64,000 nt of DNA, from NCBI GenBank assembly GCA_965249325.1, contig CBDFLP010000012.1:73555-137554 (forward strand), given 5' to 3'. Below the pieces are notes generated by a model that saw only the letters and a program-made list of their open reading frames with translations, was not told the origin of the DNA and did no database searches. The position numbers and the translations under genes were made by a program. Each line of letters begins with the position of its first letter. Positions within the stretch are counted from its first letter, which is position 1. This DNA is from Dehalococcoidia bacterium. GTDB lineage: Bacteria; Chloroflexota; Dehalococcoidia; Lucifugimonadales; Australimonadaceae. Below are positions 15,498 to 44,308 of the stretch, piece by piece.

Positions 15498-18400
15498 TCA
15501 CAACGTGATTTTCTTGTACAGCTGGGGGAGGCGGCGGGGGAGCTCGAGGATGTCGGGGAGGACTTCGTAGTTCAGGTCGCCGGTCATGGTGCGGAGGTAG
15601 TCGTGGCCGTTACGGTCGACGGTGAGGCAGAAGGGCGTGATGTCGTACTTGCGGGCCTCCATCAGCGCCATGCGGGTGTCCTGGACCGCGTATTCCTTCT
15701 CGACGCCCTCGCGAGAGTACCCGCGGTCTTGGGGACGGCCGTCGCTGATGACGAACATGAATTTCGTCTTGGCGTCGATAGCAGCGAGCTTGGTCGTCGC
15801 GTGGCGGATGGCGGGGCCCATGCGGGTAGCGTGGAGGGGGGCGACTTTGTCGAGGCGGCGCTTCACGCGGTCGGTGAGGTGCTCCTCGACCTCCTTGATG
15901 ACGTAGAACTCGACATTCTCGCGGCCGAAGCCGGAGAAGCCGTAGACGCCGTAGCGGTCGCCGATAGTCTCCAAAGCGTTCATGAGGAGGACCATCGACT
16001 CCTTCTCCACGTCGATGATGCGCTTGTAGGGGCGTCGGGCCGTCTCGCCGCGGCGGGCGCGCAGCCAGGCGGTGTAGGCGACGGGATCGCCCGGCGCGTT
16101 CCAGTCGGCGTCTCTGGAGCTTTCCTCCACGGCCTCGGCGGTCGACGCGCTCATATCGAGGAGAAAGACGACGCCGACATCGCGCTCGTCCTTGTTGCGG
16201 CGCCAGTAGATGCGCTCGTCCGGGGTCATGCGGTTTCGGAGGTCGATCAGCGCTTCGATGCCGGCGTCGATGTCGATGTCCTCGCCCTCCGGAAGACGCT
16301 TGACCTTGCGGTACATCTCCGGTCGGACCGATTCGAACTGGCGCTTGATTTGGTCCACGAGTCCGGCGTAGGAGTGCAAGGTATCGGCGTAGAACCCGGG
16401 CTCGCCTGCCACGGCGATGCGCTCCTGCACAATGCACCAGCGGGGGCGGTAATCATTGGCCCGGAAGTCCCATTCGTCGTAGGCATAGGAGCGGGGCTCG
16501 CGTGGTTCGAGCGGGCCGCCGTCCTCATCAACGTGGGGGATCTGGTTGTAGCCGGAACCCGCGGGGTTCTGGGGGGCGTCCGCGCCCATCTCCTTCATCA
16601 TGTTCGCGGCGACGGTCGTTACTTCGGCGTCGTCGCCTAAGTCGACTTCCGTCGAGTCTCGCAGGGCCTGTTCGAGCTCGGCCTGCGAGATGCCCTGAGC
16701 GCCCTCGGCGCCTTCGTCGTCGCCAGGTTCCGCTTGACCGCGCATCTGTGCGAGGAGCTGGACCATCTCCGGCTTGAAGTCTCCCCGGTACTCGACGTCC
16801 TCGGGGGACTCGTAGTCGTCGCCGGCGGCCTCTTCCTCCATCTGTTCGGCCTCGGCGCGCAGGCGGTCGATGATTTCCTGGAGCTCAGGCTCTTCGTACC
16901 GGGCGCGGGTGAGGTCGACCTCTTCCCAATCGTCGAGGGGCACGAGCTCGTTTGGCACGTGGGAGAGGGCGTAGTACATCCGCAGCGCCGCTTCCGAGGA
17001 GTCTTCGACGCTGGTGTCGCGGTTCTGGACGGTCTTGAGGAGTCCCGCGAGCTGCTCGGCGTGCCGGACGTATTTCGTGGGCACGCGGGCGTTCGACGTC
17101 TGATACAGGCTGAGACGGATGAGCATCTCGACCAGCGACTGCTGGGCCGGCATCATCTCGATTGGCCCGCGGTTCGCGAGGGCCTCGCTCTGCACCTGGG
17201 AGTAGTCTTGAGCTAGGCCGCGGTACTGGGTCGTCAACTGGTGGTCGACGCGGGCGTCCTCGACGATCGAGAAGACGTCGGCGGCCATGGCGCGTACAGG
17301 AAACAGGTCGAAGAAGGAGGCTATGTCTGTAGAGCCGGGCTCCGCGTTGAGGGCCTCGGCCAGCCCTTCGCGGTAGTCGCTGAAGCTGTTAGAGGGCGCG
17401 TGGAAGTCGAACTTGAAGCTCTCGAACTCCAAGTGTCCCACCTGGTGAGTTGTGACGACCTTCAGCCAGGCGAAGTTTCCTTTCTTGGTGTCGCGTAGGT
17501 CCACCATTGCCGGGAGGAATACGCTCTTGCCGTCCGTGGTGGCGAGCTCGACGGAAACCCAGCCGATGTTCCGGTGGGTGATGTCGTCCGCAGGTTGGAG
17601 CTCGACTTCGGTCCCGGCCAGGGCATTGGCGTACATGCGGAGCAGGCCATGGACCTTCTCCAGCTCAATGCTGGAAGACAGCTGGTCGATGAGGGTTTCC
17701 GCGCGGGCGGACTCCAGCTTGAAGTAGGCGACTCCGCCGTCGGGATTATCACGCAGGTACTCGACGCCACGGCCGAACCAGGTGTCGAGCTGGGCAGGGC
17801 TGATGCGATCAAGGACCTGGGGAGCAGTGCGGAGGAAGGCGCTGACTGCCTCGGCCGACGTATCGGCAAGGTCTTCCGCGCGCTCCAAGACGATCATCTG
17901 CTGGTCTTGGGGGAGTCTCGCGAGGGACTGGGCGCTCTCCACCATGAAACTCGACACGTTGCCGAGTCCCTGGCGGGCGAGCCTCTCCGCTAGTGCGAAG
18001 TAGCGGGGCCGGAGGCGACGGTCCAAGCTGGCGCCGACGCGGGTGGCCGCTTCGAACGAGCCGCGCACCTCGCGCCAGCTCGTCTCCGCGAGCACCGTCG
18101 CCAGCGATATCAGCTCCTCGCGCTCGCTGACGGCAGGGAGCACCCGCTGTCCGAGGACGAGGGCCTCAGCCGCGAGGTCGTAGGAGCGGTTCGCCAGGGT
18201 CTGCACGAGCGAGACGAACAGCTGCATCTCATGGAAGCTGACTTGCTGGACGAGGTCGTCGCTGACGTCGAAGAACCGGGCTGCGAGGCTGGACGACTTC
18301 CATGTGCCCTTCGACAGCCCGCGTCCCAGCGCGGCCCACCCTGCGATGTGCCTCGGCGCTAGCGTCGGAAGGACCCGCGGGCTCGCGCGGAAGTAGGACG

Positions 18401-18692
18401 CCGCTATGACCGGCGCGTCGACAGTAAGCTCGATGCCGCTCTCGACCCAGCGCTCCAGTTGTGGAAAACCGATGACCTGCACGACGGCCGGCGACGCCTT
18501 GAAGTACTCGGCTGCGGCCTCCCAAGCGCGGGGGCCCTGCTGAGCGATGCGGACGCCCTCCTGCGCCCAGCGAAGGGCTGGCGCGGGACCGACGACGGCG
18601 GCCACGGACTCGACCGCAGCCTCATAGGCGGATATGAGCGCCGAGGGGTGCTTTTTCATCTCTTCGATGACGTTGTCGTGCTCGTTGGTCAC
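15498..18692 (-). CDS. NorD/CbbO-like VWA domain protein with long N-terminal helical-repeat extension
   Basis: YDEWDF, MIDAS LLDMSAS, TRMGPAIRHA and SDGRPQD motifs typical of the NorD/CbbO C-terminus. Confidence 0.88.
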   Translation of the reverse strand: MTNEHDNVIEEMKKHPSALISAYEAAVESVAAVVGPAPALRWAQEGVRIAQQGPRAWEAAAEYFKASPAVVQVIGFPQLERWVESGIELTVDAPVIAASYFRASPRVLPTLAPRHIAGWAALGRGLSKGTWKSSSLAARFFDVSDDLVQQVSFHEMQLFVSLVQTLANRSYDLAAEALVLGQRVLPAVSEREELISLATVLAETSWREVRGSFEAATRVGASLDRRLRPRYFALAERLARQGLGNVSSFMVESAQSLARLPQDQQMIVLERAEDLADTSAEAVSAFLRTAPQVLDRISPAQLDTWFGRGVEYLRDNPDGGVAYFKLESARAETLIDQLSSSIELEKVHGLLRMYANALAGTEVELQPADDITHRNIGWVSVELATTDGKSVFLPAMVDLRDTKKGNFAWLKVVTTHQVGHLEFESFKFDFHAPSNSFSDYREGLAEALNAEPGSTDIASFFDLFPVRAMAADVFSIVEDARVDHQLTTQYRGLAQDYSQVQSEALANRGPIEMMPAQQSLVEMLIRLSLYQTSNARVPTKYVRHAEQLAGLLKTVQNRDTSVEDSSEAALRMYYALSHVPNELVPLDDWEEVDLTRARYEEPELQEIIDRLRAEAEQMEEEAAGDDYESPEDVEYRGDFKPEMVQLLAQMRGQAEPGDDEGAEGAQGISQAELEQALRDSTEVDLGDDAEVTTVAANMMKEMGADAPQNPAGSGYNQIPHVDEDGGPLEPREPRSYAYDEWDFRANDYRPRWCIVQERIAVAGEPGFYADTLHSYAGLVDQIKRQFESVRPEMYRKVKRLPEGEDIDIDAGIEALIDLRNRMTPDERIYWRRNKDERDVGVVFLLDMSASTAEAVEESSRDADWNAPGDPVAYTAWLRARRGETARRPYKRIIDVEKESMVLLMNALETIGDRYGVYGFSGFGRENVEFYVIKEVEEHLTDRVKRRLDKVAPLHATRMGPAIRHATTKLAAIDAKTKFMFVISDGRPQDRGYSREGVEKEYAVQDTRMALMEARKYDITPFCLTVDRNGHDYLRTMTGDLNYEVLPDILELPRRLPQLYKKITL

Positions 18693-19324
18693 ACCCGCTC
18701 CTTGTCGCCACGCAGGCCGTTAGCTCGCGTTAGTCCCTGCGCAATCTCCACCAACTGAGTGAGTATCCAAGCGGTTGCTCCGAACACTAAGTGTTCGTTG
18801 TGAGCATATGCGACTCGCTCGACAAGCTGGCCGCCGGGGCCCAACCGGGCCTCACGCCGGACCGCGGACTCGCTCAAGAGATAAGTTAGGGGTATCTCGA
18901 TAACCTCTGCGACTTCCCCTTCATCCACCGTGTACGCGTAAGGGTGAGGAACAACGCCAACGGACGGCCAGACGATGTAGTTCGTACGCGTCATGATGGG
19001 GTCCAGCGGGCCGAGCACGTCCACGTCGCCTGGACTGATCCCCATCTCCTCCCAGGTCTCGCGGAGGGCGCAGGCGAGCATGTCCCGATCGGCCGGTTCC
19101 AGCTTTCCGCCGGGAAAGGCAATCTCGCCTTGATGGAGCCCGACGTGCTGCGAGCGGACGTTCAGGATCACGTGCCAATCGCCGTCGTGATACTGGAGTG
19201 GAACGAGGACGGCCGCCGGGCGGGCTCCGTCGACGGGGTCGAACGAGGGCTCCCGGCCTGCCAAGGCTTGCCGGATGGCCTCGATCAACGCGGACGCCTC
19301 CGCTGGGATAGTGGTGGTCTGCAA
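18689..19324 (-). CDS. Nudix hydrolase, CoA pyrophosphatase (NudL/PCD1) type
   Basis: AAVLVPL, HQGEIAFPGGK, Nudix box ALRETWEEMG and VFGATA. Start is approximate. Confidence 0.88.
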   Translation of the reverse strand: MQTTTIPAEASALIEAIRQALAGREPSFDPVDGARPAAVLVPLQYHDGDWHVILNVRSQHVGLHQGEIAFPGGKLEPADRDMLACALRETWEEMGISPGDVDVLGPLDPIMTRTNYIVWPSVGVVPHPYAYTVDEGEVAEVIEIPLTYLLSESAVRREARLGPGGQLVERVAYAHNEHLVFGATAWILTQLVEIAQGLTRANGLRGDKERV

Positions 19325-19335
19325 CAGGTCGTTCC

Positions 19336-20205
19336 CTAGGGGAAGATCGAGGTAACGATCTCCATCACGCTTGCCTGGATGTCGTGGTCGTCGGTGAGGC
19401 CCCACACCACGGCAACCTCGCAGGACCGCCGGGGCGATATGCCTTGCTCCATGAGCTTGCCGGCGTAGATGAGCAGGCGCGTGCTGACGCCTTCCTGCAG
19501 ACCTTGACCTACGAGATTACGAATCTTCTCGCCGAGTAGGGCGAGCTGCTGCGCAGTCACCCGGTCCACGCCGCTCTCGTGCTCGATGATGGGGCCTTCC
19601 AAGTCCCTAGGTGGGAAGTCGAACTCGATAGCTACAAACCGCTGGCGGGTCGAGTGCTTCAGGTCCTTCAGGGCGCTCTGGTAGCCTGGGTTGTAGGAGA
19701 TGACGAGGAGGAAGTTCGGGTGAGCTCCCAAGACCTCGCCGATCTTCTCAATGTGCAGCAGTCGACGGTGGTCGGATAGCGGGTGGATGAGGACGGTGGT
19801 GTCCTTCCGCGCTTCGACGACCTCGTCCAGGTAGCAGATGCCGCCGTGCTTGACCGCCCGCGTGAGGGGCCCGTCGATCCAGCGGGTGCCGTCCGGCTCC
19901 AGGAGGTAGCGTCCGACGAGGTCGCTGGCAGTGAGGTCTTCGTGGCAGGCGACCGTGACCAGCGGGGATACCTGATGCCCCCGGCCATCGCGTTTCCGGG
20001 CGTCGTTCAGGCTCCAGGACATGTATTCGACGAACCGGGTCTTGCCTGAGCCGGTGGGTCCCTTGAGGAGGATAGGGACGCGCTGGGCGTACGCCGCCTC
20101 GAAGATGTCGACTTCGTCGGCGACAGGCAGGTAGAACGGCTCCTCCTCGATGAAGTATTCCTCAATGCTGTGTTGCTGATAAAGCTGGCTAGTCTGCTCT
20201 GCCAT
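19336..20205 (-). CDS. CbbQ/NirQ/NorQ family AAA+ ATPase (MoxR group)
   Basis: GPTGSGKTRFVE, CHEDLTASDLVGRY, YLDEVVEARKD and SYNPGYQ...KDLKHSTRQRF motifs. Confidence 0.93.
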   Translation of the reverse strand: MAEQTSQLYQQHSIEEYFIEEEPFYLPVADEVDIFEAAYAQRVPILLKGPTGSGKTRFVEYMSWSLNDARKRDGRGHQVSPLVTVACHEDLTASDLVGRYLLEPDGTRWIDGPLTRAVKHGGICYLDEVVEARKDTTVLIHPLSDHRRLLHIEKIGEVLGAHPNFLLVISYNPGYQSALKDLKHSTRQRFVAIEFDFPPRDLEGPIIEHESGVDRVTAQQLALLGEKIRNLVGQGLQEGVSTRLLIYAGKLMEQGISPRRSCEVAVVWGLTDDHDIQASVMEIVTSIFP

Positions 20206-20812
20206 GGATTGCACTGCCCTTAGATAAGATTCTCTCTTCCCACAACTGCCGTATGCGATTACCGAGGTCGTCGAGCGAGCCTGAGTTGTCGATGAGCGCG
20301 TCCGCCCTTGCGAGGAGGAGCTCGGTCTGCCCCTGGGCCTCGAGCCTGCGCTGTATGTCGTCCGGCGACAGCCCGCGGCCCCTTAGCTGTTCGACGATGG
20401 CGACAGGCGATGCGGACACCGCCCATACTTCGTCCGTCAGGTCGTCCCAGCCCGCCTGGTAGAGGAGCGCGGCGTCGAGAACGACGACGCCTTGTCCTGA
20501 GTCGCGGTGCTCCCCGATAGCCTGGCTAACCCTTTGACGGATGAGGGGATGGATGGCGGCGTTCAGCCAGGCAAGGGCCTGGGGCTTTGCGAAAACGAGA
20601 GCGCCAAGCCGCGCGCGGTCGACTCCGCCGTCGTCGTCTAGGATTTCGCTACTGAAGATCTCGACGATCCGCCTCCAGCCGATGGAGCCCTTTGCGTAAG
20701 CCCGGTGTCCCTCGGCGTCGGCATCGATGACAGCTGCGCCTAGTCCTGCAAGGACGTTGGCTGCTTCAGTCTTGCCTGTGCCGATTCCTCCCGTAAGACC
20801 AATGACCCGCAC
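20189..20812 (-). CDS. coaE: Dephospho-CoA kinase
   Basis: VIGLTGGIGTGKT, IDAD, DRARLGALVF, IHP and IDNSGS motifs. Confidence 0.92.
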   Translation of the reverse strand: MRVIGLTGGIGTGKTEAANVLAGLGAAVIDADAEGHRAYAKGSIGWRRIVEIFSSEILDDDGGVDRARLGALVFAKPQALAWLNAAIHPLIRQRVSQAIGEHRDSGQGVVVLDAALLYQAGWDDLTDEVWAVSASPVAIVEQLRGRGLSPDDIQRRLEAQGQTELLLARADALIDNSGSLDDLGNRIRQLWEERILSKGSAIHGRAD

Positions 20813-20931
20813 AGCAACCCCAAGTTCCGCTTTTGCGTCACGGCCTTGGCGGTCACGGCGCAATAGCTCAGTCTAGCATGCGGCGGGAGGGCGTACCACA
20901 GGCTGACTAGGCCCCTGTAGAATTGCCTTGG

Positions 20932-26972: not shown

Positions 26973-27725
26973 CTACGCGCTGACGGCGGAATCGAGCCAG
27001 TCGTAACCTCGGGACTCGATCTCGGCGGCGAGCGACTTGTCGCCCGAGCGCACTATCCGCCCGTCGATGAGGATGTGGATGTAGTCCGGCTCCAGGTAGG
27101 AGAGCACCCGCTCGTAGTGGGTGATGATGACTGTTGATGCGGTGGGCCCCGTTAGCTCCGTGATGCCCGCCGACACCTCGCGGAGGGCGTCTACGTCGAG
27201 CCCTGAGTCGATTTCGTCGAGGATGCGCAGCCGGGGTTCGAGCACGGCCATCTGGAGCACCTCGTTCCGCTTCTTCTCGCCGCCCGAGAAGCCCTCGTTC
27301 ACCGATCGCTTGGTGAGGGCCGGGTCCATATCGACGACTTTCACCTTGGCGCGGATGAGGCGGTCGAACTTGAGCGGATCGAGCTCCTCGCCGCCCTTGC
27401 TCTTCATGAGCTCGTTGTAGCCGGCGCGTAGGAAGTGGTCCATTCGCACGCCGGGAATCTCGATGGGGTGCTGGAACGACAGGAACAACCCCTTGCGCGC
27501 GCGCTCCTCCGCCGCCAGTGCGAGGAGGTCGGCGCCGTCGAACGTCACGGCGCCCGCCGTGACCTCGTAGCCCGGCCTGCCGGCCAGGACGTAAGCCAAG
27601 GTGCTCTTTCCGGAGCCGTTCGGTCCCATGATTGCATGTGTTTCGCCGTCGCCGATGGAGAGGTCGATTCCCTTCAGTATCTCGACCCCGCCGACCTCAG
27701 CGCGCAGTCCTCGGATTTCCAGCAT
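26973..27725 (-). CDS. sufC: Fe-S assembly ATPase SufC
   Basis: GPNGSGKST, NEGFSGGEKKRNE and LDEIDSGLD motifs. Confidence 0.96.
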   Translation of the reverse strand: MLEIRGLRAEVGGVEILKGIDLSIGDGETHAIMGPNGSGKSTLAYVLAGRPGYEVTAGAVTFDGADLLALAAEERARKGLFLSFQHPIEIPGVRMDHFLRAGYNELMKSKGGEELDPLKFDRLIRAKVKVVDMDPALTKRSVNEGFSGGEKKRNEVLQMAVLEPRLRILDEIDSGLDVDALREVSAGITELTGPTASTVIITHYERVLSYLEPDYIHILIDGRIVRSGDKSLAAEIESRGYDWLDSAVSA

Positions 27726-29176
27726 CAGCCGACCGTCCCTTCGAGGTTCATGTCCAGCAGACGGTTCGCCTCCACGGCGAACTCCAGCGGCAGGCGGCGG
27801 ACGACCTCGCGCACGAACCCGTTGACGATGACCGACTGCGCGTCCTCGCGGCTCAGTCCGCGCTGCTGGCAGTAGAAGATCTGGTCCTCGCTCACCTTCG
27901 TGGTCGACGCCTCATGCTCGACGCTCGCCGACCTATTCTCGACCTCGATGTAGGGGACCGTGTGCGCGCCGCACTGATCGCCGATGAGCAGCGAGTCGCA
28001 TTGGGTGAAATTGACCGCGCCGCGCGCGTTTGGCAGCATCTTTACGAGGCCGCGGTAGGTGTTGTTCCCGTGGCCGGCGGAGATGCCCTTGGAGATGATC
28101 CGGCTAGACGTATTCTTGCCGATGTGGGTCATCTTCGTGCCGGTGTCCGCCTGCTGACGGCCCTTCGCGAGGGCCACCGAGTAGAACTCGCCGGTGGAGT
28201 CGTCGCCCTGCAGCAGCACGCTGGGGTACTTCCACGTGATGGCGGAGCCGGTCTCGACCTGCGTCCAAGAAATCTTCGACCTCGCGCCCGCGCACTTGCC
28301 GCGCTTGGTGACGAAGTTGAAGATGCCGCCCTTGCCGTTCTCGTCGCCGGGGTACCAGTTCTGGATCGTCGAGTACTTAATCTCGGCATCGTCCATCGCG
28401 ACGAGCTCGACGACCGCTGCGTGCAGCTGGTTCGTGTCGCGCATCGGCGCCGAGCATCCTTCCAGGTAGCTCACGTATGAGCCCTTGTCGGCGATGATCA
28501 GCGTGCGCTCGAACTGCCCGGACCCCTCCGCGTTGATGCGGAAGTAGGTCGATAGCTCAAGGGGGCAGCGAACACCCGGCGGGATGTAGACGAACGAGCC
28601 GTCCGAGAAGACCGCCGAGTTGAGCGCCGCGTAGAAATTGTCGGAGTAGGGCACCACGGAGCCGAGGTATTTCCGCACCAGCTCCGGGTAGTCCTTCACT
28701 GCTTCCGAGACGGAAGAGAAGATGACGCCGTACTTGGCCAGCGTGTCCTTGGCGGTGGTGGCCACGCTTACGCTGTCGAAGATGGCGTCGACAGCGACGC
28801 CGGCCAGCCGCTTCTGTTCTTGCAGCGGGATGCCAAGCTTCTCGTAGGTGCGGAGAATCTCCTCGTCGACTTGGTCGAGGCTCTCCAAATCCAACTTGGG
28901 CTTGGGGGCGGCGTAGTAGTAAATGCCCTGGTAGTCGATGGGCGGATGGGCGATGTTCGCCCACGTGGGGGTCTGCTCCTCATCGAGGAGCTTCACGAAG
29001 TGGCGGTACGCCCTGAGCCGCCAATCGAGCAGCCATTCAGGCTCGCCCTTCTTGGCCGATATCCAGCGGACGATGTCCTCGCTGAGACCGGGCGGGGCGG
29101 ACTCCTCCTCGACATCGGTCGTCCACCCGTACTTGTACGACTCCTCGGCGATTTCTTCGACGGTGCGATTGGTCAT
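27725..29176 (-). CDS. sufB: Fe-S assembly protein SufB
   Basis: [20 protein letters not shown] and TWKYPS motifs. Confidence 0.96.
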
Positions 29177-29217
29177 GTAACGTGCAGGGGGAGGGCCCTG
29201 GCGACAGCCTTTCTGTA

Positions 29218-29242
29218 ATTGTCGATTGATTAGGTCAACAAT
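29218..29242. promoter_or_regulatory. Putative Rrf2/IscR-type operator upstream of sufB
   Basis: 9-7-9 inverted repeat ATTGTCGAT-TGATTAG-GTCAACAAT (7 of 9 symmetric), about 42 bp upstream of the sufB start. Confidence 0.6.
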
Positions 29243-29844
29243 AGGCTAGAGCGCGCCACGGCCTATGTCAAGGTTGATTGGGCCGGCGCAGCTCCTCCTC
29301 TTCAGTTCTTGCCGCCTTCGCGGGAATCCAGGGCGCGCAGAAGCGCAGATGGGGCTGGTTCCCGCCTCGGCGCCCAAGCGCAAGCGTCGCTATTATGACA
29401 TCTATTCGTTGCGCAAACGACCATCGCTCCCTATCCTGTCTCCCATGCCCAACCACACGGCGCTTTCCACGCTCCGATGCCCCTACGGGCCCCTGGATCT
29501 TGTCTGGGGGGAAGGGTCGTGGGGGAGGGAAATAAAAGAGTTCATCAGTCAGAAAGTAGTTTTAGACTCCAGGAAGCAGGCCAGGGCCATGAAAACGCTC
29601 TCTGTCAACCCCTCTTTGTCGTCGACTTTCGGATACTTTTTTACTCGTAACGTCATCGAAAATCGGGGACTTCCTATCCGTAATCTTCCCGAAAACCGAA
29701 GTCGCTTCACCCGCGCGTGGGACTGGGCAGGGGACTACGCAAAGGTCTCCCAAACGGGAGACCTTGCGTAACCTGATCCCTGGGGCGTCTGAAGGGAATT
29801 AGAGCCGGGGCGCCAGGCCCTATTGTCACTGACTAGCGTTCGCT

Positions 29845-31504
29845 TCACCCCGCCCCGAGAGTTGCCCCGGTCGTCGCGGCGATTGCCTGGCAGAACGGCA
29901 GATCACTAGTCGTGAGAGTCACCCAGCTGGGCTTGCAAGCTGGCCGGTATGCACCCGCTTAGCTGGTTGTCAGGGATGGCCAGCTCGCTCACGTTGGCGA
30001 GATTGTCCAGGGCCGGCGGTATCGGCCTGCCCAATTGGTTGGCATGGAGGAACAACGTGCGCAGGTTGGCGAGATTGCCCAGGTCCGGGGGTATCGGCCC
30101 GCTCAATTGGTTGGCATTGAGGTCCAACGTGCTCAGGTCGGCGAGATTGCCCAGGTCCGGGGGTATCGGCCCGCTTAGCTGGTTGGCATTGAGGTCCAAC
30201 GTGCGCAGGTTGGCGAGATTGCCCAGGTCCGGCGGTATCGGCCCGCTCAATTGGTTGGATTCGAGGGACAGCCCCTCAACGCGGCCATCGTCATTCGTGG
30301 TGACACCGTACCAATCGCCGAGAGGGGCGTCGCTCAGCCAATTGGCGTTGTTCGTCCAGTCCGGGCCGTTCGTGGCGTTGTAGAGCGCGATGAAGACGGC
30401 CCTGTCCGTCGTCGCGGCGATTGCCTGGCAGAACGGCAGATCACTGTCGTGGGAGTCACCCAGCTGGGCTTGCAAGCTGGCCGGTATGCACCCGCTCAGC
30501 TGGTTGCCACTGAGGTTCAACGAGCTCAGGTTGGCGAGATTGCCCAGCTCCGGCGGTATCGGCCCGCTTAGCTGGTTGTCATTGAGCCACAGCCCTATCA
30601 GGTTGGCGAGATTGCCCAGTTCCGGCGGTATCGGCCCGCTCAATTGGTTGTCATGGAGGTATAACACGCTCAGGTTGGCGAGATTGCCCAGGTTCGGCGG
30701 TATTGGCCCGCTCAATTGGTTGTCCCAGAGGACAGCAGCTGCAGGTTGGCGAGGTTGCCCAGCTCCGGCGGTATCGGCCCGCTCAGCTGGTTGCCACCGA
30801 GGCGCAGATCGCTCAGGTTGGCGAGATTGCCCAGGTCCGGCGGTATCGGCCCGCTTAGCTGGTTGACAGCGAGGAACAGCCCCTCAACGCGGCCATCGTC
30901 ATTCGTGGTCACACCGTACCAATCGCCGAGAGGGGCGTCGCTCAGCCAATTGGCGTTGTTCGTCCAGTCCGGGCCGTTCGTGGCGTTGTAGAGCGCGATG
31001 AGGACGGCCCTGTCCGTCGTCGCGGGCGTCGGCGCGCCGATGGTGACGGGGGTGCTCACGAACCATTGATCGAGAGGCGGCTCAGCAGGGAGGAACCGGT
31101 TGCGCGGGACGATTCGGGTGCTCCAGCCGTTGCTTTCGCGCTGCTGGAGGGCGAACTCGGTGCGCCCGTCTTGCAGGAGCTGGGCGGTAATGCGGACTTC
31201 GATCCCGCCACCGCTCTCGCCGCCGCTCTCGGGCTGCAGCATAGTCTGTGCTGCGGTTGTGACGGGAATGCTGAATAGCCATCGGTTGACTGGCGGCTCC
31301 GCGGGGAGGAAGCGGGCGCGCGGAGCGATTCGCTCGCTCCAGCCGCCTCCTTGCCGCTGCTGGATGGCGAACTCGGTGCGCCCGTCTTGCAGGCGCTGCA
31401 CGGCGGACTTCGACCTCGCCAGCACTTTGGGCCTGCGCGACCATCGTGGAGGAGTCGGCGGCGGCGATAATCAGCAGGACGACGACGGCAGCGTTCTTCA
31501 GCAT
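29845..31504 (-). pseudogene. Secreted leucine-rich-repeat protein (plant-type 24-aa LRR), frameshifted
   Basis: Signal peptide MLKNAAVVVLLII after GGAGG. Two about 55-aa N-terminal repeats. Two cap+LRR modules (LSGPIPPxLGNLANLxxLxLxxNQ). Indels near 31403, 30730 and 29908. Confidence 0.85.
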
Positions 31505-31573
31505 GGGACCTCCCGGTGCAGCTGGAATTCGCCAGCACGGGGCGCATCCGTACCGGGGGCATCCTAATACTAC

Positions 31574-31651
31574 CCGCAGACGGAGTTGCTGTCCAAGTGC
31601 ATGGCGTACAACCTGCGGAGGGCGGACCGGCTCGTGCTCGCCGCCGCCTAA
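31574..31651 (+). pseudogene. Probable transposase C-terminal remnant
   Basis: Reads QTELLSKCMAYNLRRADRLVLAAA*, resembling the AYNL(K/R)R tail of IS5/IS1182-type DDE transposases. Ends about 140 bp before the right IR. Confidence 0.55.
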
Positions 31652-31837
31652 TCGCTGGGGGCGGCGGAGGCCCCGGAAGGCCGTGAGAACCAGGGGCAAC
31701 GGGGGAGGAACGACCCGCCACCGGCCGCCATCAGACCCCTCAACCGCCTGTCGAACCCCACATTCCAACCGAACGGCAGCTCAGGAAACATTACGCAAAG
31801 GTCTCCCAAACGGGGGAGAGGAATTGCCCAGGCAAAA

Positions 31838-34093
31838 CTAGTGGTCGCGCAGGGCTCGCCAGATGCGCTCGGGAGTGAGAGGGAGGTCTTTGACGCGAAC
31901 GCCGGTTGCGTTGAAGAGGGCGTTTGCGACGGCGGGGGCCACGGCGACGATGCCGCCTTCTCCGACGCCCTTCGCTCCGTAAGGCCCGGGGCCGTCGCCG
32001 TTCTCGATGAGCACGGTCTCAAAGACCTCCGGCAAGTCGGTGAATATGGGCACTCGATAGTCGATGAGGTTGGGGTTGAGGAGCTGGCCGCCCTCGTAGA
32101 GCATCTCCTCGAAGAGCGTGTGGCCGATGGCCTGCATTGCGGCCCCTTCGTCCTGTCCCTCGACCTGCTTCGGGTTGATGGCCTTGCCGGGGTCGGAAGC
32201 TGAGTAGTAACGGAGCAGCCGCAGCTCGCCGGTGGCGGTGTCCACTTCTATTTCGGCCGCGCCGATGCTGACCTCCCAGAAGACCGGGTCCATGCGGAGC
32301 CTGCCGCTCGGGTGCTTGGGCGTTACGTATCCCCTGCCGATCAGCTCGCCGCCGGAGCCGCCGAACATGTCCCGGACGAGCGCCGCGAACGTAACCGTCT
32401 CGCCCTTGAAGGTCACCTTCTCGTCTTCCGCCTCCAACTGCTCGGGGAAGGTCTCGAAGTACTCGGCCGCCAGCCTGATCACCTGCTCGCGTATATCGAC
32501 TGCGGCGTCGTGGACCGCCAGGCCCATGAGCGTCGTCGACCTGCTGGAGCCGGTCGAACGGTCGAACGGGACCGCGTCCGTGTCCGACCCGATGACTCGG
32601 ACCTTCTCGTAGGGGATGCGTAGCTCCTCGGCGGCGATCTGCGCCATCGCCGAGCGGGACCCCTGTCCCATCTCGGCGCTGCCGATGTAGATGGTCGCGC
32701 TGCCGTCGGCATGCAGGCGGGCCAGGGACGTCGATGTGGGGCTGGCCCCCGAGTTGGTGACGCTGCACGCGAATCCAATGCCGCGCTTTACGCCCGGCGG
32801 CGTGGGAGCGGGCGTGTACGACGACCAGCCGAACTCTTCGGCGACCAGGCGGAGGGAGGGTTCCAGGCTGCCCTCGATGGGCCGCTTGCCGCGCCGGACC
32901 TCTTCGCCCTGCGGGACGAGGTTCTTAATGCGCAGCTCGACCGGGTCCATGCCGAGGGCGGCGGCGATGATGTCGATCTGGGACTCGCCCGCCCAGACGG
33001 CCTGCGGGCCGCCGATGGACCGGTAGGAGCCTGCGGGCGTGCTATTCGTGAAGACGCCGTAGGACTTTGTGCGGACGTGCGCCAGCTTGTAGGGGCCGGG
33101 CATACGGTCCGCGATGCGCTCCGTCACGCGGACGCCGTTGTCGGTGTAGCCGCCCGTGTCCACGTAGGCGACGCACTCTCGCGCGACGATCAGTCCGTCC
33201 TGCATGACCCCCGTCCGAATCGTCGCCTTGGCGGCGTGACGGCGAACGGTGCGCATCGCCTCCTCGACGGTCAGGGCCAGCCTCACCGGCCTTCCAGCCT
33301 CCCTGCTCAACGCCGTTACGACCGGCTCAATCTTCGTGTACGACTTGCTGCCGTAGCCGCCGCCAACGAACGGAGAGACGACCTGCACCTGGTCGAGCTG
33401 ACGCCGGAACAGCCGCGCGATCTCGGCCCTGACCAGGAACGGGTGCTGGGCCGACGTCCAAAGCCGGATACGGTCCGGCTCGTAGCTGGCGATGCAGGCG
33501 TGGGGCTCCATCGCATAGTGGTAGACCATCGGGAAAGTGAAAGTGTCCTCGAATACGTGGTCACAGCTACGGAACGCCGCATCGACGTCGCCCCACTCGT
33601 AGCCGTACTCGTGGCAGAGGTTGGAGTCGTGGATGGCGGCGCTGGAGGGGTCAAGCGCGGTCTCCAATCCCATCACCGTGGGGAGTTCCTTGTACTCCAC
33701 GTCCACCAACTCGACCGCCGCCTCGGCCGTGGTCAAGTCGACGGCGGCGATTGCGGCAATCGGCTCTCCTTGGAAGCGCACTTTGTCGATGGCGACAACG
33801 GGTCGGTCTTTCTTGTCGGAGCCGAAGTGGGTCTCCATGCCGACCAGCTCTGCGCTGGTGAGCACGGCGTAGACGCCCGGCAGCGCGCGGGCCTTGCTCG
33901 CGTCCACGCTCAGTATCCGCGCGTGCGGCAGCGGGCTCGTAACGAGCTTGGCGTAGGCCATCCCCGAGATCTGGATGTCCCCGGTGAACTGCGCGCGCCC
34001 GGAGAGCTTTTCGTCCGAGTCCACACGGCGGACCGCTTGGCCGACGGTCCGGAAGCCGCGCGCGGACTGTCCTGTGTTCGGCGAGCTAGTCAT
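31838..34093 (-). CDS. Xanthine dehydrogenase family molybdopterin-binding large subunit
   Basis: VGGGYGSK, GSYRSIGGPQ, EMGQG, GKAINP and AKGVGEGG motifs. Confidence 0.92.
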   Translation of the reverse strand: MTSSPNTGQSARGFRTVGQAVRRVDSDEKLSGRAQFTGDIQISGMAYAKLVTSPLPHARILSVDASKARALPGVYAVLTSAELVGMETHFGSDKKDRPVVAIDKVRFQGEPIAAIAAVDLTTAEAAVELVDVEYKELPTVMGLETALDPSSAAIHDSNLCHEYGYEWGDVDAAFRSCDHVFEDTFTFPMVYHYAMEPHACIASYEPDRIRLWTSAQHPFLVRAEIARLFRRQLDQVQVVSPFVGGGYGSKSYTKIEPVVTALSREAGRPVRLALTVEEAMRTVRRHAAKATIRTGVMQDGLIVARECVAYVDTGGYTDNGVRVTERIADRMPGPYKLAHVRTKSYGVFTNSTPAGSYRSIGGPQAVWAGESQIDIIAAALGMDPVELRIKNLVPQGEEVRRGKRPIEGSLEPSLRLVAEEFGWSSYTPAPTPPGVKRGIGFACSVTNSGASPTSTSLARLHADGSATIYIGSAEMGQGSRSAMAQIAAEELRIPYEKVRVIGSDTDAVPFDRSTGSSRSTTLMGLAVHDAAVDIREQVIRLAAEYFETFPEQLEAEDEKVTFKGETVTFAALVRDMFGGSGGELIGRGYVTPKHPSGRLRMDPVFWEVSIGAAEIEVDTATGELRLLRYYSASDPGKAINPKQVEGQDEGAAMQAIGHTLFEEMLYEGGQLLNPNLIDYRVPIFTDLPEVFETVLIENGDGPGPYGAKGVGEGGIVAVAPAVANALFNATGVRVKDLPLTPERIWRALRDH

Positions 34094-39017: not shown

Positions 39018-41308
39018 CGCGCCTCGTTGGCACCTCGATGCCTACCCTGGAAGCTGCTGAGAAAGCGGCGGGGCGCATTGAGTACATGGGCGACCTCGTC
39101 GTGCCGGGCATGGCGCATGCGAAAGTCGTCCGCAGCCCATTGCCCCACGCGCGCATCGTTTCCATCGACGCGTCCGCCGCCCGCGCGCTCCCGGGGGTCA
39201 TCTGCGTCCTTACCCGCGACGAGATTTGGGCCGACCCGGACATCGAGGATCTGTATGGGTTCGTCTACCGGGACGCTCCTCTGGTGGCGATGGACAAGGT
39301 CAGACACCACGGTGATATCGTGGCCGTAGTGGTCGCGGAAGACATCGCCACAGCGGAGGCGGGCGCCGAGCAGGTGGACGTCGAGTACGACGAGCTTCCC
39401 GCCGTGATGGACGTGAGGGCCGCGCTGGTGGAAGGGGCGTCTCGCGTCCACCAGGAGTTCTTTCCCATCGCGCCGGAGCTGCGTCCGGTGGAAGGCACCA
39501 ACATCTGCCACCAGGCGACGCTGGCGCACGGCGACGTGGAGCAAGGGTTCGCGGAGGCCGACTTCATATACGAGGACGAGTTCTCAGCGCCGCCGGTACA
39601 GCACTGCGCGCTCGACCTGCATGCGGTGATCTCTCAGGTCGACGATGGACGTATCACGGTCTGGACGAACTGCCAGTCGCCCTTTCCCCTCAGCCGCGAG
39701 CTCGAGCGCATGTTCAAGATGCCTGCGCGGGTCATCGTGCCGTACGTCGGCGGCGGGTTCGGCAGCAAGAGCAGGGATCGCATCGAGTGCGTCATCACGG
39801 CGGCGGCGAAGCTTGCCGGCAGGCCGGTGCGTTACGTCTTCACCCAAGAGGAGACGTTCCTGACCTACCTCCGCCCCGCCTACGCCAACCGCATGAGGAC
39901 CGGCGTGAAGCGCGACGGCACTATCGTGGCGCGGCACAACAGCTTCTACGTGGACGTGGGGGCGTACGCCATCAGCGGCGCCCGCAGCGCGAATAATACC
40001 CTCAAGGTGGCGACCGGCCCTTACAAGGTCCCCCACGCGCGCGTCGACTGCTACGCCGTCTACACGAACAAGCCTCCGTCGGCGCCGTACCGCGGCCTGC
40101 CGACGACGCAGCACACGATGTCCTACGAGGGCCAGCTCGACCGCATCGCGCGGGACCTCGGCATCGACCGCCTCGAAATACGGCGGAAGAACCTGGTCCG
40201 CGACGGCGATATCCACATCACGGGCGACTACTTGCGCTCGGCTCACGCCCACGAGTGCCTCGATAGGGCAGCAGCCGCGATTGGCTGGGGCGAACCGCTC
40301 GCTCCCTCGTTGGACGGCAAGACGCTGCGCGGGCGCGGAGTCTCCTGCACCATCAAGTACACGCTCACTCCCCCGCGGCAGATGTCCGAGAACAGCGCCG
40401 AGATCGTCCTTGGCGAGGATGGCGTCTTTGAGACGCGTATCGGGACGGTGAACATCGGACAGGGGTCCGACACCGCGATGGCGCAGATAGCGGGCGACGC
40501 GCTGGGAGTTGGTCTCGATTCGATACGAATCGTCCACAGCGACACCGGCCGCGTCCCCGTCGACAGCTCGACGACGGCGAGCCGGTCGACGTACCACATG
40601 GGCGTCGCGGTCGTCGAAGCCGCGGGGAAGGTCAAGCAGCAGATCGTCGAGGCCGCCTCGCATCTGCTGGAACGCGAGGCCTCCGAGCTGACGGTCAGCG
40701 GCGAGGGCGTCGTTGGGCCGGATGGGGACGGCGCCGGCGTTAGCCTGTCGGACCTGGTTCGCCATGTTGGGGAGCCATTGGCCGCGACCGGGGAGTGCGT
40801 CGTTGGCGGCACGTATCGCGCGCCGGACGGCAAGGACTATCCGATAGCCTCGACATTCTGGACGTTCGCATCGTGTGCGGCGGAGGTGGAGGTCGATACG
40901 GAGACGGGGCAGGTGCGTTTGGTCATGGCCGGGGCCGCCGCAACCACCGGCACCGCCGTGAACCCGCACTCCATCGAGACGCAGCTCGAGGGCGGAGTCG
41001 GCCAGGAGCTCGGGCCGACACTCTTCGAGCAGATGGTCTGGGATGACGGCGGCCAGCTCATCAACTCAGCGCTCATGGACTATCCGCTCCCCACCATGGA
41101 AACGATGCCAAGCTACGCGTCCGAGCTGGTCGATCACCCCTTCGAGGGGGGGCCGTTCGGGGCTAAGGGCATGGGCGAAATCGGTGCCGTTATCCTGCCT
41201 GGCGCGGTGGTGAATGCGGTGTACGACGCGACAGGCGTCCTCTTCCACGACATTCCGCTGCTCCCGTACAAGGTGCTCGAAGCGCTTTACGCGGCGGAGA
41301 AGGAGTAG
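38990..41308 (+). CDS. Xanthine dehydrogenase family molybdopterin-binding large subunit
   Basis: VGGGFGSK, APYRGLP, NIGQGS and AKGMGE motifs. Exact start uncertain. Confidence 0.92.
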   Translation: MCAATGPRVTRLVGTSMPTLEAAEKAAGRIEYMGDLVVPGMAHAKVVRSPLPHARIVSIDASAARALPGVICVLTRDEIWADPDIEDLYGFVYRDAPLVAMDKVRHHGDIVAVVVAEDIATAEAGAEQVDVEYDELPAVMDVRAALVEGASRVHQEFFPIAPELRPVEGTNICHQATLAHGDVEQGFAEADFIYEDEFSAPPVQHCALDLHAVISQVDDGRITVWTNCQSPFPLSRELERMFKMPARVIVPYVGGGFGSKSRDRIECVITAAAKLAGRPVRYVFTQEETFLTYLRPAYANRMRTGVKRDGTIVARHNSFYVDVGAYAISGARSANNTLKVATGPYKVPHARVDCYAVYTNKPPSAPYRGLPTTQHTMSYEGQLDRIARDLGIDRLEIRRKNLVRDGDIHITGDYLRSAHAHECLDRAAAAIGWGEPLAPSLDGKTLRGRGVSCTIKYTLTPPRQMSENSAEIVLGEDGVFETRIGTVNIGQGSDTAMAQIAGDALGVGLDSIRIVHSDTGRVPVDSSTTASRSTYHMGVAVVEAAGKVKQQIVEAASHLLEREASELTVSGEGVVGPDGDGAGVSLSDLVRHVGEPLAATGECVVGGTYRAPDGKDYPIASTFWTFASCAAEVEVDTETGQVRLVMAGAAATTGTAVNPHSIETQLEGGVGQELGPTLFEQMVWDDGGQLINSALMDYPLPTMETMPSYASELVDHPFEGGPFGAKGMGEIGAVILPGAVVNAVYDATGVLFHDIPLLPYKVLEALYAAEKE

Positions 41309-41310
41309 GC

Positions 41311-41772
41311 GTGCGCCTAGAGCTCACGGTGAACGGCGCGGCCTGCAGCATGGACGTTCCCCCGTCCACGACGCTGCTCGACCTGCTCCGCGACCGTCTC
41401 GGCCTGAAGGGGACCAAGGAATACTGTCATAGCGGCGTCTGCGGGGCTTGCACCGTCCTCCTCGACGGTCGCGCCGCGAGCTCGTGCAGTCTCTTGGCGG
41501 GCCAGGCCGAGGGGCATGACGTCGTGACGATCGAGGGCCTCACGCCGGCCGATGGCCTGCACCCGATACAGCAAGCCTTCGTCGACAACTTCGGGCTGCA
41601 GTGCGGCTACTGCACGCCGGGGATGATTCTGCTTGCGAAGGCGCTTCTCGACGAGAACCCAAGCCCGAGCCGGGAGGAGATCATCCGGTACATGGGCGGC
41701 AACATCTGCCGCTGCACCGGGTATGCGGGCATACTGCGGTCGGTCGAGGCCGCCGTCCGGGGCAAGGGCTAG
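41311..41772 (+). CDS. 2Fe-2S small subunit (CoxS family)
   Basis: CHSGVCGAC, QCGYCTPG and NICRCTGY motifs. Confidence 0.93.
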   Translation: MRLELTVNGAACSMDVPPSTTLLDLLRDRLGLKGTKEYCHSGVCGACTVLLDGRAASSCSLLAGQAEGHDVVTIEGLTPADGLHPIQQAFVDNFGLQCGYCTPGMILLAKALLDENPSPSREEIIRYMGGNICRCTGYAGILRSVEAAVRGKG

Positions 41773-42218
41773 TGGAGCTAGCGGACAATTTCGCCGTGAG
41801 CGCGTCGGCGGATGAGACGTGGGCCTTCTTCTGGGACCTGCCGCGCGTGGCCCGCTGTCTGCCCGGCTGCGAGAGCATTGAGACGACCAGCGACTCCACG
41901 TACAGGGCGCGGCTGGTCCAGAAGGTTGGCCCTTTCCAAGTCGCCATGGACATCGACATGGCGGTCGACGAGGTCGAACAGGGGCGTCGCATCGTCGTCT
42001 CGGGCGGAGGGAAGGACCGTATGGGCAACAGGCTTCGCATCAATAGGCTCGCGCTTGAGCTCAGCGAGCCGTCGGCGGACCGGACCGAGGTCAGCTACGA
42101 GCTGGACTTCAACCTGTTCGGTAGACTTGCGACGCTGGGGAACACGGTAGTGAAGCGCAAGGCGGAAGAGACCCGCGTCGAGTTCAGCCGGAACATTGCG
42201 GCGGAGCTGGGGGGCTGA
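41772..42218 (+). CDS. coxG: CoxG/SRPBCC family protein
   Basis: TWAFFWDLPRVARCLPGC, KVGP and GRLATLG. GTG start overlaps the coxS-like stop. Confidence 0.82.
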   Translation: MELADNFAVSASADETWAFFWDLPRVARCLPGCESIETTSDSTYRARLVQKVGPFQVAMDIDMAVDEVEQGRRIVVSGGGKDRMGNRLRINRLALELSEPSADRTEVSYELDFNLFGRLATLGNTVVKRKAEETRVEFSRNIAAELGG

Positions 42219-42279
42219 CCAGCGGCCGCGACCAGTACAGTGGCTGTACGTCGGTCTAGCAGGGTGGGAAGCAGCCCCC

Positions 42280-42669
42280 TTAACCTGCCTCTCTCGGCGG
42301 ACGCGACTCCGGGGGGCCGATGCAGAACTCGTTCCCGTCCGGGTCCGCGCACACCGTGAAATCGGCCAGGCCGTTGTCGATGGTTCGGAGCGCCTGGCCG
42401 CCGAGCTCCACGACGAGGGCCACTGCGGCGTCCATCTCGTCCGTTTCGAAGTCGAAGTGGACGCGGTTCTTGCCCGCCTTGGGCTCGTCGCTCTGCTGCA
42501 GCAGGAAGCAGAGACCGCTGGGTAGTTGCGCCCGGCGGAAGCCTGACTGGGTGGGCGCGGCGAACGCGCACCCCAGCAGCCGCGACCAGAACGCCGCCGC
42601 GCGATCGATGTCCGCAACGTCTATCACGACGGCTTCGAGGAAACCGATAAGTGGGTGTTCCGTGGTCAT
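42280..42669 (-). CDS. VOC/glyoxalase family protein
   Basis: AAAFWSRLLG, KNRVHFD and ADPDGNEFC motifs. Confidence 0.88.
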   Translation of the reverse strand: MTTEHPLIGFLEAVVIDVADIDRAAAFWSRLLGCAFAAPTQSGFRRAQLPSGLCFLLQQSDEPKAGKNRVHFDFETDEMDAAVALVVELGGQALRTIDNGLADFTVCADPDGNEFCIGPPESRPPREAG

Positions 42670-42826
42670 CCCAGCTGATCCTAAGGCTCGCGGTACATAT
42701 TGCGAGGGTTCTCGCGGAGGATAGCATCCGGCGCTCCTCCTCGATGTCTGCCCATCGATGTGGCTTCTTCTGCGCCTCCTGCCTCCGTCCGCTACAATCC
42801 CGCTCGACTCGCTAAAGGAGGCCGAC

Positions 42827-44308
42827 ATGCCAGTGCAGGACCTGCGTGAGTGGATCGCGCGCATCGAGGAGATGGGCGAGCTGACCCGCATCGAGGGCGC
42901 CGACCCCAACCTGGAGATAGGCGGGCTCACCGACCTCTACCAGTGGGACATGGAGAACCCCGCCTTGCTCTTCGAGAAGATCAAGGGCCACTCGGAGGGC
43001 TACCGGCTCATCTCGAACGTCCTCACGTCGCTCCCGCGCATCTGCCTGAGCCTCGACCTCCCGACCGAGCTGACGCGCCAGGAGTTCGTCAAGACGTGGC
43101 GCGACCGCCTCAAGGAGTTCACGCCCATCGCGCCGAGACAGGTGGAGGACGGGCCTGTGCTCGACAACCGTCAGGAGGAAGGCGAGGTGGACGTGACGCA
43201 ATTCCCCGCGCCGTTCTGGCACTCCGAGGACGGCGGCAATTTCCTCGGCACCGGTAACATCGTCATCATGCGCGACCCGGACACCGGCTGGGTGAACGCG
43301 GGCACGTATCGCGTTCAGGTGCACGACAAGAACACGCTCGGCATCATGATTTCGCCCGGCAAGCACGGCCGCATGATCCGCGAGAAGTACTGGGCGAAGG
43401 GCAAGGCGTGCCCGGTCGCGGTGTCGTTCGGACAGGACCCGCTGCTGCTGCTGCTCGGCGGGCTGGAGGTCGACTACGGCGAGGACGAGTTCGCGGTTGC
43501 GGGCGGCATGCGCAACGAGCCGCTGGACGTCATCGCCGCGCCGCTCACCGGTCTGCCCGTCCCCGCGACGTCCGAGATAGTTATCGAGGGCGAGATACCG
43601 CCGGACCAGTTCCACCAGGAAGGTCCGTTCGGCGAGTGGACGGGTTACTACGCGGGCGGCGAGCGCGACATGCCCATCATCAACGTGAAGTCGATCAACT
43701 GGCGGAACAACCCCATCGTGATGGGCTGCCTGCCGGGCAAGCCGCCGAACGACAACACGTACTTCCGCAGTCCGCTGCGCGCGGCGATGCTCTGGAACGA
43801 GCTGGAGCGCGCGGGAGTGCCGGGCATCGTCGGCGCGTGGTCGCACGAGGCCGGCGGTGGGCGCTTCCTGAACGTCATCTCCATCAAGCAGATGTACCCC
43901 GGCCACGCGAAACAGGTCGGTCACGCGACGACCGCCGTCCACGCGGGCGCGTACGCCAACCGGTTCGTCATCGTGGTCGACGACGACATCGACCCCACCG
44001 ACACGAACGAGGTGCTGTGGGCGCTCTGCACGCGCACGGAGGTGACGGAGGACGTCGACATCGTGAAGCGGATGTGGAGCACGTCGCTCGACCCGATGGC
44101 CTACGCCGGAGACGAGGGGCCGCGCTACTACAACAACCGCATGATCATCGACGCGTGCCGTCCGTACGACCGCCTGGCGACGTTCCCGCCCGTGGCGCGG
44201 GCGACGCAGGAGCAGGCCGCCGACCTCCGCGCCCAGTGGCCGCAGCTCTTCACCGCCGACGGCAAGGTCCGCAAGGACGTGCGGAAGGCGTCGCGGAATG
44301 GGGGCTGA
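42827..44308 (+). CDS. UbiD family (prFMN-dependent) decarboxylase
   Basis: DLREWI, NAGTYR, EGPFGEWTGYY, VVDDDID and IIDACRP motifs. AAGGAGG RBS. Confidence 0.93.
   Translation: MPVQDLREWIARIEEMGELTRIEGADPNLEIGGLTDLYQWDMENPALLFEKIKGHSEGYRLISNVLTSLPRICLSLDLPTELTRQEFVKTWRDRLKEFTPIAPRQVEDGPVLDNRQEEGEVDVTQFPAPFWHSEDGGNFLGTGNIVIMRDPDTGWVNAGTYRVQVHDKNTLGIMISPGKHGRMIREKYWAKGKACPVAVSFGQDPLLLLLGGLEVDYGEDEFAVAGGMRNEPLDVIAAPLTGLPVPATSEIVIEGEIPPDQFHQEGPFGEWTGYYAGGERDMPIINVKSINWRNNPIVMGCLPGKPPNDNTYFRSPLRAAMLWNELERAGVPGIVGAWSHEAGGGRFLNVISIKQMYPGHAKQVGHATTAVHAGAYANRFVIVVDDDIDPTDTNEVLWALCTRTEVTEDVDIVKRMWSTSLDPMAYAGDEGPRYYNNRMIIDACRPYDRLATFPPVARATQEQAADLRAQWPQLFTADGKVRKDVRKASRNGG

Follow-up and report, generated by a model that had tools for sequence, protein, structure and literature searches.

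We analysed a stretch of 64,000 nucleotides from a Dehalococcoidia bacterium (contig CBDFLP010000012.1; this whole stretch is called the window below) and found that a 2,048-bp unit at 29758-31805, lodged between sufB and a gene for the large subunit of a molybdenum hydroxylase, is likely to be a non-autonomous derivative of an insertion sequence (IS) of the IS5 family, that is, a mobile insertion cassette (MIC), with a gene for a leucine-rich-repeat (LRR) protein as its cargo. We would put the probability of this reading at about 0.8. Mobile insertion cassettes carry passenger genes between IS-type repeats, contain no transposase and are activated by a cognate one (PMC4337579). In the window, the repeats are those of an identifiable IS, copies of which in two genomes of the same genus (G004 and G005) match both ends and are homologous to the right 227 bp; the transposase gene is missing, with only a 23-codon tail preceded by a stop codon found inside and no other match; the passenger is the LRR gene, at 29906-31504 and frameshifted as assembled; and the unit has a target duplication and empty sites in relatives, the length of the duplication, 8 nt, being atypical in comparison with the 5-6 nt of the family. 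The kind of element is thus already known, as it fits the definition given in the literature; what this case adds is a parent of the IS5 family, a pair of ends of hybrid origin, an LRR gene as cargo and a new host group.

The genome under study (2.79 Mb in 20 contigs, 91% complete) was compared with six other genomes of the genus, G001-G006. The first-pass annotation of the window had expected relatives with sufB next to the molybdenum-enzyme gene and a single copy of the flanking repeat between them; this arrangement was found in G005, in G004 and in Logan contigs from other studies. In G005, positions 739776-741234 of contig C2 correspond to window 28300-29762 (95% identity) and positions 741209-742316 to window 31792-32900 (96%), the two matches overlapping by 26 bp; G004 has the same pattern, with flank identities of 91% and 95%. 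The empty site reads ...TACGCAAGGTCTC CCAAACGG GAGACAGG... in G005, with one CCAAACGG, and ...TACGCAAGGTCTC CCAGACAG GGGAGAGG... in G004, where the spacer CCAGACAG is a variant of CCAAACGG. At each of the two sites, a repeat unit that also stands to the left of the cassette (unit E, described below) is followed by a single spacer and then by a G-rich half-palindrome; the sufB side is joined directly to the molybdenum-enzyme side, and no LRR gene occupies the locus. The Logan contigs, from two metagenome runs called X3 (depth 92) and X4 (depth 12), also carry the empty site, skipping from 29740 to 31798; since they differ from the window at ∼4-5% of positions, they come from relatives and not from the same strain. 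In G001, G002 and G006 the genes for sufB and the molybdenum enzyme are adjacent as well, with other spacers between them. The filled left junction is carried by a 675-nt contig of X1 and by one contig of X2, as both span 29300-29899 with no differences from the window; X1 and X2 represent one sample of depth ∼2, possibly of the same source as the assembly.

With one 8-nt repeat included, the inserted DNA amounts to 2,056 bp. The terminal inverted repeats of 14-15 bp noticed earlier were borne out: the left one, GAGACCTTGCGTAA, lies at 29758-29771 on the forward strand and the right one, TTACGCAAAGGTCTC, at 31791-31805 on the reverse strand, and the two match at 14 of 15 nt, one T being missing from the left repeat. 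Exact copies of the direct repeat CCAAACGG follow outside, at 29750-29757 and 31806-31813. The perfect 8-bp duplication claimed before is therefore present at both ends; still, the direct repeat found by repeat search is really 26 nt long (29736-29761 vs 31792-31817, 25 of 26 positions identical), because the right-type inverted repeat also terminates the adjacent unit E. The order at the left junction is thus right-type repeat, 8 nt, left-type repeat.

Unit E, a repeat unit upstream of sufB (approximately 29500-29749), adjoins a G-rich half-palindrome at its start and has a right-type inverted repeat, TACGCAAAGGTCTC, at its end (29736-29749); no left-type repeat was seen in it. It shows 82% identity over 261 bp to positions 225431-225688 of contig C18, and several further copies exist in the genome; in G005 and G004 it borders the empty site on the left. 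Another junction with two abutted ends, consisting of a right-type repeat, 6 nt (GTTTAC) and a left-type repeat, was observed at 3299-3335 of contig C11.

The parent of the right end was identified with a 304-bp query covering it, which produced 10 matches in G004 (72% identity) and one in G005 (90%). Eight of the 10 loci in G004 have both ends, 1,208 bp apart, while two are without the left end; the copy in G005 is 1,212 bp long. Thus, insertion sequences with these ends do exist, as at least eight full copies in one congener and one in another. Their transposases, of 338 aa in G004 and 341 aa in G005, end in ...FKCMAYNLRRADRLLLGVA and ...FKCMAYNLRRADRLVLAAV, respectively, contain the Pfam domains DUF772 and DDE_Tnp_1, and match the NCBIfam model NF033581 ('IS5 family transposase') with 312.9 and 285.8 bits at a cut-off of 140; these scores refer to the G004 and G005 copies, as the window has the tail alone.

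The 3′ remnant of this element occupies 31579-31805 on the forward strand (227 bp) and corresponds, with 89.8% identity and an 18-bp deletion in the window, to the last 245 bp (positions 968-1212) of the G005 IS. In cassette coordinates the homologous part is 1822-2048; the rest of the cassette shares with the IS solely the terminal repeat of 15-17 nt. The remnant encodes, at 31580-31651, the peptide TELLSKCMAYNLRRADRLVLAAA*, in which 21 of 23 residues are identical to the C-terminus of the 341-aa transposase, with another stop codon four codons upstream. The transposase-like tail reported by the first-pass annotation is therefore a true C-terminus of an IS5-family transposase, its length being 23 codons and a stop rather than 25 codons. 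Taken alone, the 27-residue tail had no Pfam match and no further tblastn match in its own genome; its identity was settled by the match of the right-end query to DNA of the congeners.

The assignment of the ends themselves to the IS5 family agrees with the NF033581 matches of the parent transposases. Furthermore, the first 11 nt of the cassette ends, GAGACCTTTGC, are identical to the first 11 nt of the ISNme1 (IS5 family) repeat, GAGACCTTTGCAAAA, as given in Table 2 of the source (PMC4596501), so that the likeness to a Neisseria-type IS5 end (IS1106) suggested in the first-pass annotation is reasonable. Related insertion sequences of 1,200-1,222 bp, with GAGACC... ends and transposases of 58-75% protein identity, were found in records of three Dehalococcoidia metagenome-assembled genomes (MAGs); four of the seven copies examined lie between C-rich and G-rich half-palindromes, with repeats of 5-6 nt.

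The sole match to DDE_Tnp_1 (PF01609) in the genome of the cassette was considered as a cognate transposase and rejected, as it belongs to an IS1182-like element with other ends. This element, at 113538-115105 of contig C18, has perfect 17-nt inverted repeats, CTAGCAGCCCGTCCGAG, and a transposase split into two open reading frames of 255 and 231 aa.

The cassette ends are members of a numerous family. Occurrences of the 15-mer end in the genome under study number 113 with up to two edits, 95 with up to two substitutions and 25 if only exact ones are counted; exact copies elsewhere in the genus number 103 in G001, 24 in G005, 16 in G004, one in G006 and none in G002 and G003. Among the 31 genomes used for these counts, the exact 15-mer was found in nine and the pattern read backwards in none; given 25 exact copies against zero in the same genome, the inverted repeats are not a product of chance. 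Most of these ends form miniature inverted-repeat transposable elements (MITEs) of 120-580 bp. Members of the IS5 group make a 4-bp target duplication; in the clade described here exact flanking repeats have 5-6 nt, in five of nine full IS copies and in 11 MITE pairs, and 8 nt at the cassette. In G001, for all its 103 exact ends, nothing matched the 3′ part of the IS body, which indicates that the MITE swarm outlives its transposase.

As landing site, the IS5 clade and its MITEs use the loop between the C-rich and G-rich halves of a short palindrome, CTCTCCCCC-N5-6-GGGGGAGAG. In the genome under study, 55 of the 95 ends were located 4-9 nt from a G-rich half-palindrome, vs 299 of 20,000 random positions; the same preference was seen in the IS copies of G004 and in the three MAG records. 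The right flank of the cassette fits this pattern, with CCAAAC followed by the G-rich half GGGGGAGAGG at 31812-31821. The spacers at the 55 ends were mostly GTCTGC or GCAGAC (10 each), with CCAAAC occurring at one end out of 55.

The LRR gene lies on the reverse strand, with an ATG at 31504 and a stop codon at 29906-29908, and matches Pfam families LRR_1 (5.7e-28), LRR_4 and LRR_8, with LRR_14 also matched. The encoded product has a hydrophobic N-terminus (judged by eye), two repeats of ∼100 aa, a cap-like segment and LRRs of 24 residues reading LxxLxLxxNQLSGPIPxxLGNLxN (or, in another rendering, LxxLxLxxNQLSGPIPPxLGNLAN). The N-terminus makes the product a candidate for secretion, and the label 'plant-type' of the first-pass annotation would depend on comparison of the repeats with the plant-specific consensus, LxxLxLxxNxLSGxIPxxLGxLxx, also of 24 residues. 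An interaction of this protein with a host is presumed. The closest relatives of the cargo have ∼80% DNA identity; among 6,038 matches of the protein in the 'longer' size class, the best near-full-length ones reached 73% (P0063) and 72% (P0110).

An intact paralog of 386 aa, at 615546-616706 of contig C20, served as a reference for defects of the cargo. In comparison with it, the cargo has a 5-nt gap adjoining 31404 and, within 30722-30738, one LRR unit shortened from 72 to 71 nt; because of these two frameshifts the gene as assembled looks like a pseudogene, judging from its sequence. Thus, a gene on the strand opposite to the transposase tail does fill most of the unit, as described earlier, without being one open frame. 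The frameshifts are known from the assembly alone, as in contigs of X1 and X2 positions 31337-31433 are uncovered and no clean piece extends over 30722-30738. An internal duplication has given the cargo a second cap-plus-LRR module, with repeats 538 and 608 nt apart, and its stop codon at 29906-29908 was made by one extra base. At position 29908, one contig of X2 (depth 2.6) is without this stop-creating base and the X1 contig has it, a difference due to either true variation or an error. Downstream of the gene, the flank at 29772-29905 holds most of a 38-nt stretch (29870-29907) copied exactly from 30408-30445.

Upstream of the LRR gene, the region 31505-31581 (reverse strand) is homologous to upstream regions of its paralogs, by blastn as far as 31549 and beyond it by eye. 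Homology to the LRR loci ends at ∼31581 (...TAATACTACCCGCA); from there on the sequence is that of the IS (GACGGAGTTG...), and the join shows no clear microhomology. A sigma-70-like promoter match, TGGACA-17-TAGTAT at 31567-31595 on the reverse strand, spans this join and faces the LRR gene, with its -35 element in the IS remnant and its -10 element in the LRR upstream region; it was the one match found in 29100-32000 against 0.5 expected from shuffled sequences, and is thus a weak signal.

The left end has a different source. The first-pass annotation had described an IS in which the transposase was swapped for an LRR gene; this holds for the right end, which is derived from the IS, and fails for the left repeat, which comes from the 3′ flank of the LRR family. 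The left repeat belongs to the GCGTAA type, as found 3′ of resident LRR paralogs, the repeats of the IS being of the GCATAA type, and the adjoining sequence of the window (29758-29845) resembles the 3′ flank of the C20 paralog (76% over 90 columns). In G001, G004 and G005, orthologs of the C20 paralog occupy the corresponding position, with the same gene downstream. A solo left-type repeat, GAGACCTTTGCGTAA, was observed just 3′ of the LRR gene in contig C20 (at 616841-616855), in G001 and at three loci of G005, adjoining a C-rich half-palindrome; at the LRR locus of G004 none was found within 2-4 edits. We considered whether the resident LRR loci are two-ended cassettes and rejected this, as upstream of these genes no sensible right-type repeat was found within four edits.

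Given these observations, the cassette most probably formed as follows. A copy of the LRR gene elsewhere would have already carried a solo left repeat 3′ of the gene, and would have acquired the 1.2-kb IS upstream of it. An illegitimate deletion of IS positions 1-967 would then have fused position 968 to the promoter region of the LRR gene, at what is now ∼31581, leaving a unit composed of left repeat, LRR gene, IS remnant and right repeat. This order of events at the donor site is our inference. An intact IS copy would have supplied the transposase that excised or copied the unit and integrated it, the unit landing between sufB and the molybdenum-hydroxylase gene, in the spacer between unit E and the G-rich half-palindrome, with eight bases being duplicated. 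The first-pass annotation had proposed that the unit moved as a whole by means of a transposase acting in trans. The empty sites together with the duplication support insertion of the whole unit; as the unit has no transposase of its own, such an insertion would need one in trans, a part of the proposal that is deduced from the structure. A cognate transposase supplied in trans may be able to move the cassette. At present it is stranded, because no cognate transposase is found in the assembly.

Several observations weigh against this account. No autonomous copy was found in the 91% complete assembly by blastn with both insertion sequences or by tblastn with both transposases; the latter search retrieved the tail itself and two relatives at 27-31%. 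The junction between the LRR region and the IS remnant had no second copy: an exact 23-nt pattern was matched zero times in genome contigs and zero times in metagenome contigs, in a search restricted to exact matches from which records of the own genome were possibly left out. The right junction appears in none of the X1 or X2 contig pieces listed, and one base is lost from the left inverted repeat. The flanking repeat has 8 nt in comparison with 5-6 nt in all other clean cases of the family, and would have 6 nt only if one more base pair were assigned to each end; the sole explanation we can offer is that cutting may have been variable at this atypical target, which directly adjoins another end. 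Given one copy only, spreading of repeat proteins involved in host interaction by this vehicle, as envisaged in the first-pass annotation, is a possibility rather than a finding. A single copy, a decayed cargo and a kind of element that is already known limit what can be drawn from the locus.

The choice between insertion and precise loss rests on parsimony over three congeners, and this too weakens the case. One may suppose that the cassette is old and was lost from G004, G005 and the X3 and X4 strains, where a precise deletion between the 26-nt repeats would have left the site empty. A direct repeat of 25 identical positions out of 26 does flank the unit and could support such a deletion; the cargo is decayed and its closest relatives are only ∼80% identical in DNA. 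Still, the cassette is missing in all three nearest congeners, with flanks 91-96% identical, and the IS remnant has kept 90% identity to a living IS. We regard precise deletion as improbable; moreover, it would change the timing only, as the repeat structure would still require transposition.

Another possibility is that a full IS inserted at this very site and that its left 80% was later replaced by an LRR segment through recombination. Such an origin in situ would account for a right end derived from the IS next to a left end derived from the LRR locus, and the solo left repeats beside LRR genes could have provided 15 nt of homology. It needs, however, a crossover within a repeat of 14-15 nt and a simultaneous illegitimate join on the opposite side. 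As far as the duplicated bases, the left repeat follows the GCGTAA type of the LRR loci, and no relative has a full IS at the site. We therefore consider replacement in situ improbable, and favour insertion of a preformed cassette.

That a resident LRR gene came to lie by chance between two independent repeat remnants, or that the contig is chimeric, is very unlikely, even though such ends are common (95-113 in 2.8 Mb) and an inward-facing pair with identical 6-nt flanks in contig C11 looks accidental, since the empty sites join exactly at the repeat, CCAAAC is unique among 55 spacers, X1 and X2 contigs run across the left junction with no mismatch and the shared repeat is just 26 nt.

To see the cassette among other units of its genome, we paired ends systematically. 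Of the 79 pairs lying no more than 12 kb apart, 14 had exact flanking repeats of 5 nt or longer: 11 of MITE size and three larger units, namely the LRR cassette, one unit in contig C17 and one in contig C11. As GTCTGC and GCAGAC make up 20 of the 55 spacers, we estimate that chance would produce about one match in 79 pairs. The C17 unit (39486-43542) has 4,057 bp between inward-facing ends, GTCTGC on both sides and no transposase gene; it carries genes for an LRR-fn3-cadherin protein (408 aa) and a PD40 beta-propeller protein (438 aa). The corresponding site has a lone hairpin between two convergent genes in G006 and, in G001, G004 and G005, other inserts that resemble, by eye, toxin-antitoxin (addiction-module) genes. 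The C17 unit may be a second cassette; we treat it as a candidate only, because GTCTGC is the commonest spacer and the flanks could match by chance. The C11 unit (14491-20923; 6,433 bp, GCAGGC on both sides) encloses an operon of sugar metabolism, with genes for a HAD hydrolase, inositol-1-phosphate synthase, a ROK kinase and a glycosyltransferase; we rejected it as a cassette, a chance match being the best interpretation.

The neighbouring genes are sufB at 27725-29176 (Pfam SUFBD_core) and the molybdenum-hydroxylase large-subunit gene at 31838-34093 (MoCoBD_1/2 and Ald_Xan_dh_C), both on the reverse strand; a search against Rfam found nothing up to E = 0.1 within 29100-31900. In G006 (contig C91; L115:386-2400) the site between sufB and the molybdenum-enzyme gene holds two ankyrin-repeat genes encoding 453 and 164 aa (Ank_2 at 1e-76 and 1e-39), flanked by direct copies of short hairpin motifs, with IS5-type ends missing. 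The site may thus be a hotspot for eukaryote-like repeat genes.

One could speculate that in this genus a hairpin-seeking IS5 clade repeatedly turns genes for eukaryote-like repeat proteins into cassettes that are dropped into intergenic hairpins. The solo repeats beside LRR genes would then be scars, the C17 unit a second cassette, and sites like that between sufB and the molybdenum-enzyme gene shared landing pads. We hold this wider scenario to be possible though rather doubtful. If it is true, the IS and its MITE swarm would be a working vehicle that expands and exchanges gene families for host interaction.

Genes for eukaryote-like repeat proteins, with LRR, ankyrin and other repeats, are reported to be expanded in host-associated bacteria; to our knowledge, the routes by which they multiply and move are mostly unknown. 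The locus described here is one concrete case that can be checked in sequence: an LRR gene within a unit that has the marks of transposition and would depend on an outside transposase, with sister species supplying the living parent IS and empty sites serving as controls.

Among known kinds of elements, we considered and rejected two others. With 2,048 bp and a gene inside, the cassette is not a MITE, which would be short (less than ∼1 kb) and non-coding; with a 227-bp IS remnant on one side and a 14-nt repeat on the other, it is not a composite transposon. The nearest kind is that of MIC231 of Bacillus cereus, which has IS231 ends and is said to be the first mobile insertion cassette described (reportedly by Chen and colleagues in 1999 and De Palmenaer and colleagues in 2004). 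The two are alike in having a passenger between IS-type repeats, no transposase of their own, a target duplication and a presumed mobilisation in trans. They differ in that the parent here belongs to the IS5 and not the IS4 family and the cargo is an LRR protein gene; also, the two ends here are unlike each other, a 3′ IS remnant that retains part of the transposase gene on one side and a solo repeat from beside the cargo gene on the other.

With respect to landing sites, IS1397 and ISKpn1 of the IS3 family insert into the loops of repetitive extragenic palindromes (REP, or palindromic units, PU). They resemble the clade described here in that the loop receiving the element belongs to a short, repeated, G+C-rich palindrome, and differ from it in being IS3-family elements and in their palindromes, the family here being another one, CTCTCCCCC-N5-6-GGGGGAGAG.

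IS5-family elements with GAGACC... ends and accompanying MITEs are described in PMC4596501 for Neisseria (ISNme1 and ATR) and Porphyromonas (ISPg1, ISPg4 and BrickBuilt), with duplications of variable length, 2-9 bp, for the ISPg elements. The likeness to our clade, judged by ends only, consists in a MITE swarm that shares the ends and in the 11 nt in common with ISNme1; as a difference, the clade here lands in hairpin loops and duplicates 5-6 nt.

A parallel for the cargo comes from Xanthomonas, where MICs with repeats of TnXax1 (Tn3 family) carry genes of transcription activator-like effectors (TALEs), 55 of them located in MICs, and other TALE genes carry a solo repeat at one end only, according to PMC4337579. 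Both systems place genes for repeat proteins directed at a host, a role we presume for the LRR protein, in transposase-less, repeat-bounded units with target duplications, and both have family members with a solo repeat, here the resident LRR paralogs. The Xanthomonas cassettes differ in their Tn3-family parent, their 5-bp duplication and their many copies, in comparison with the one clear case reported here.

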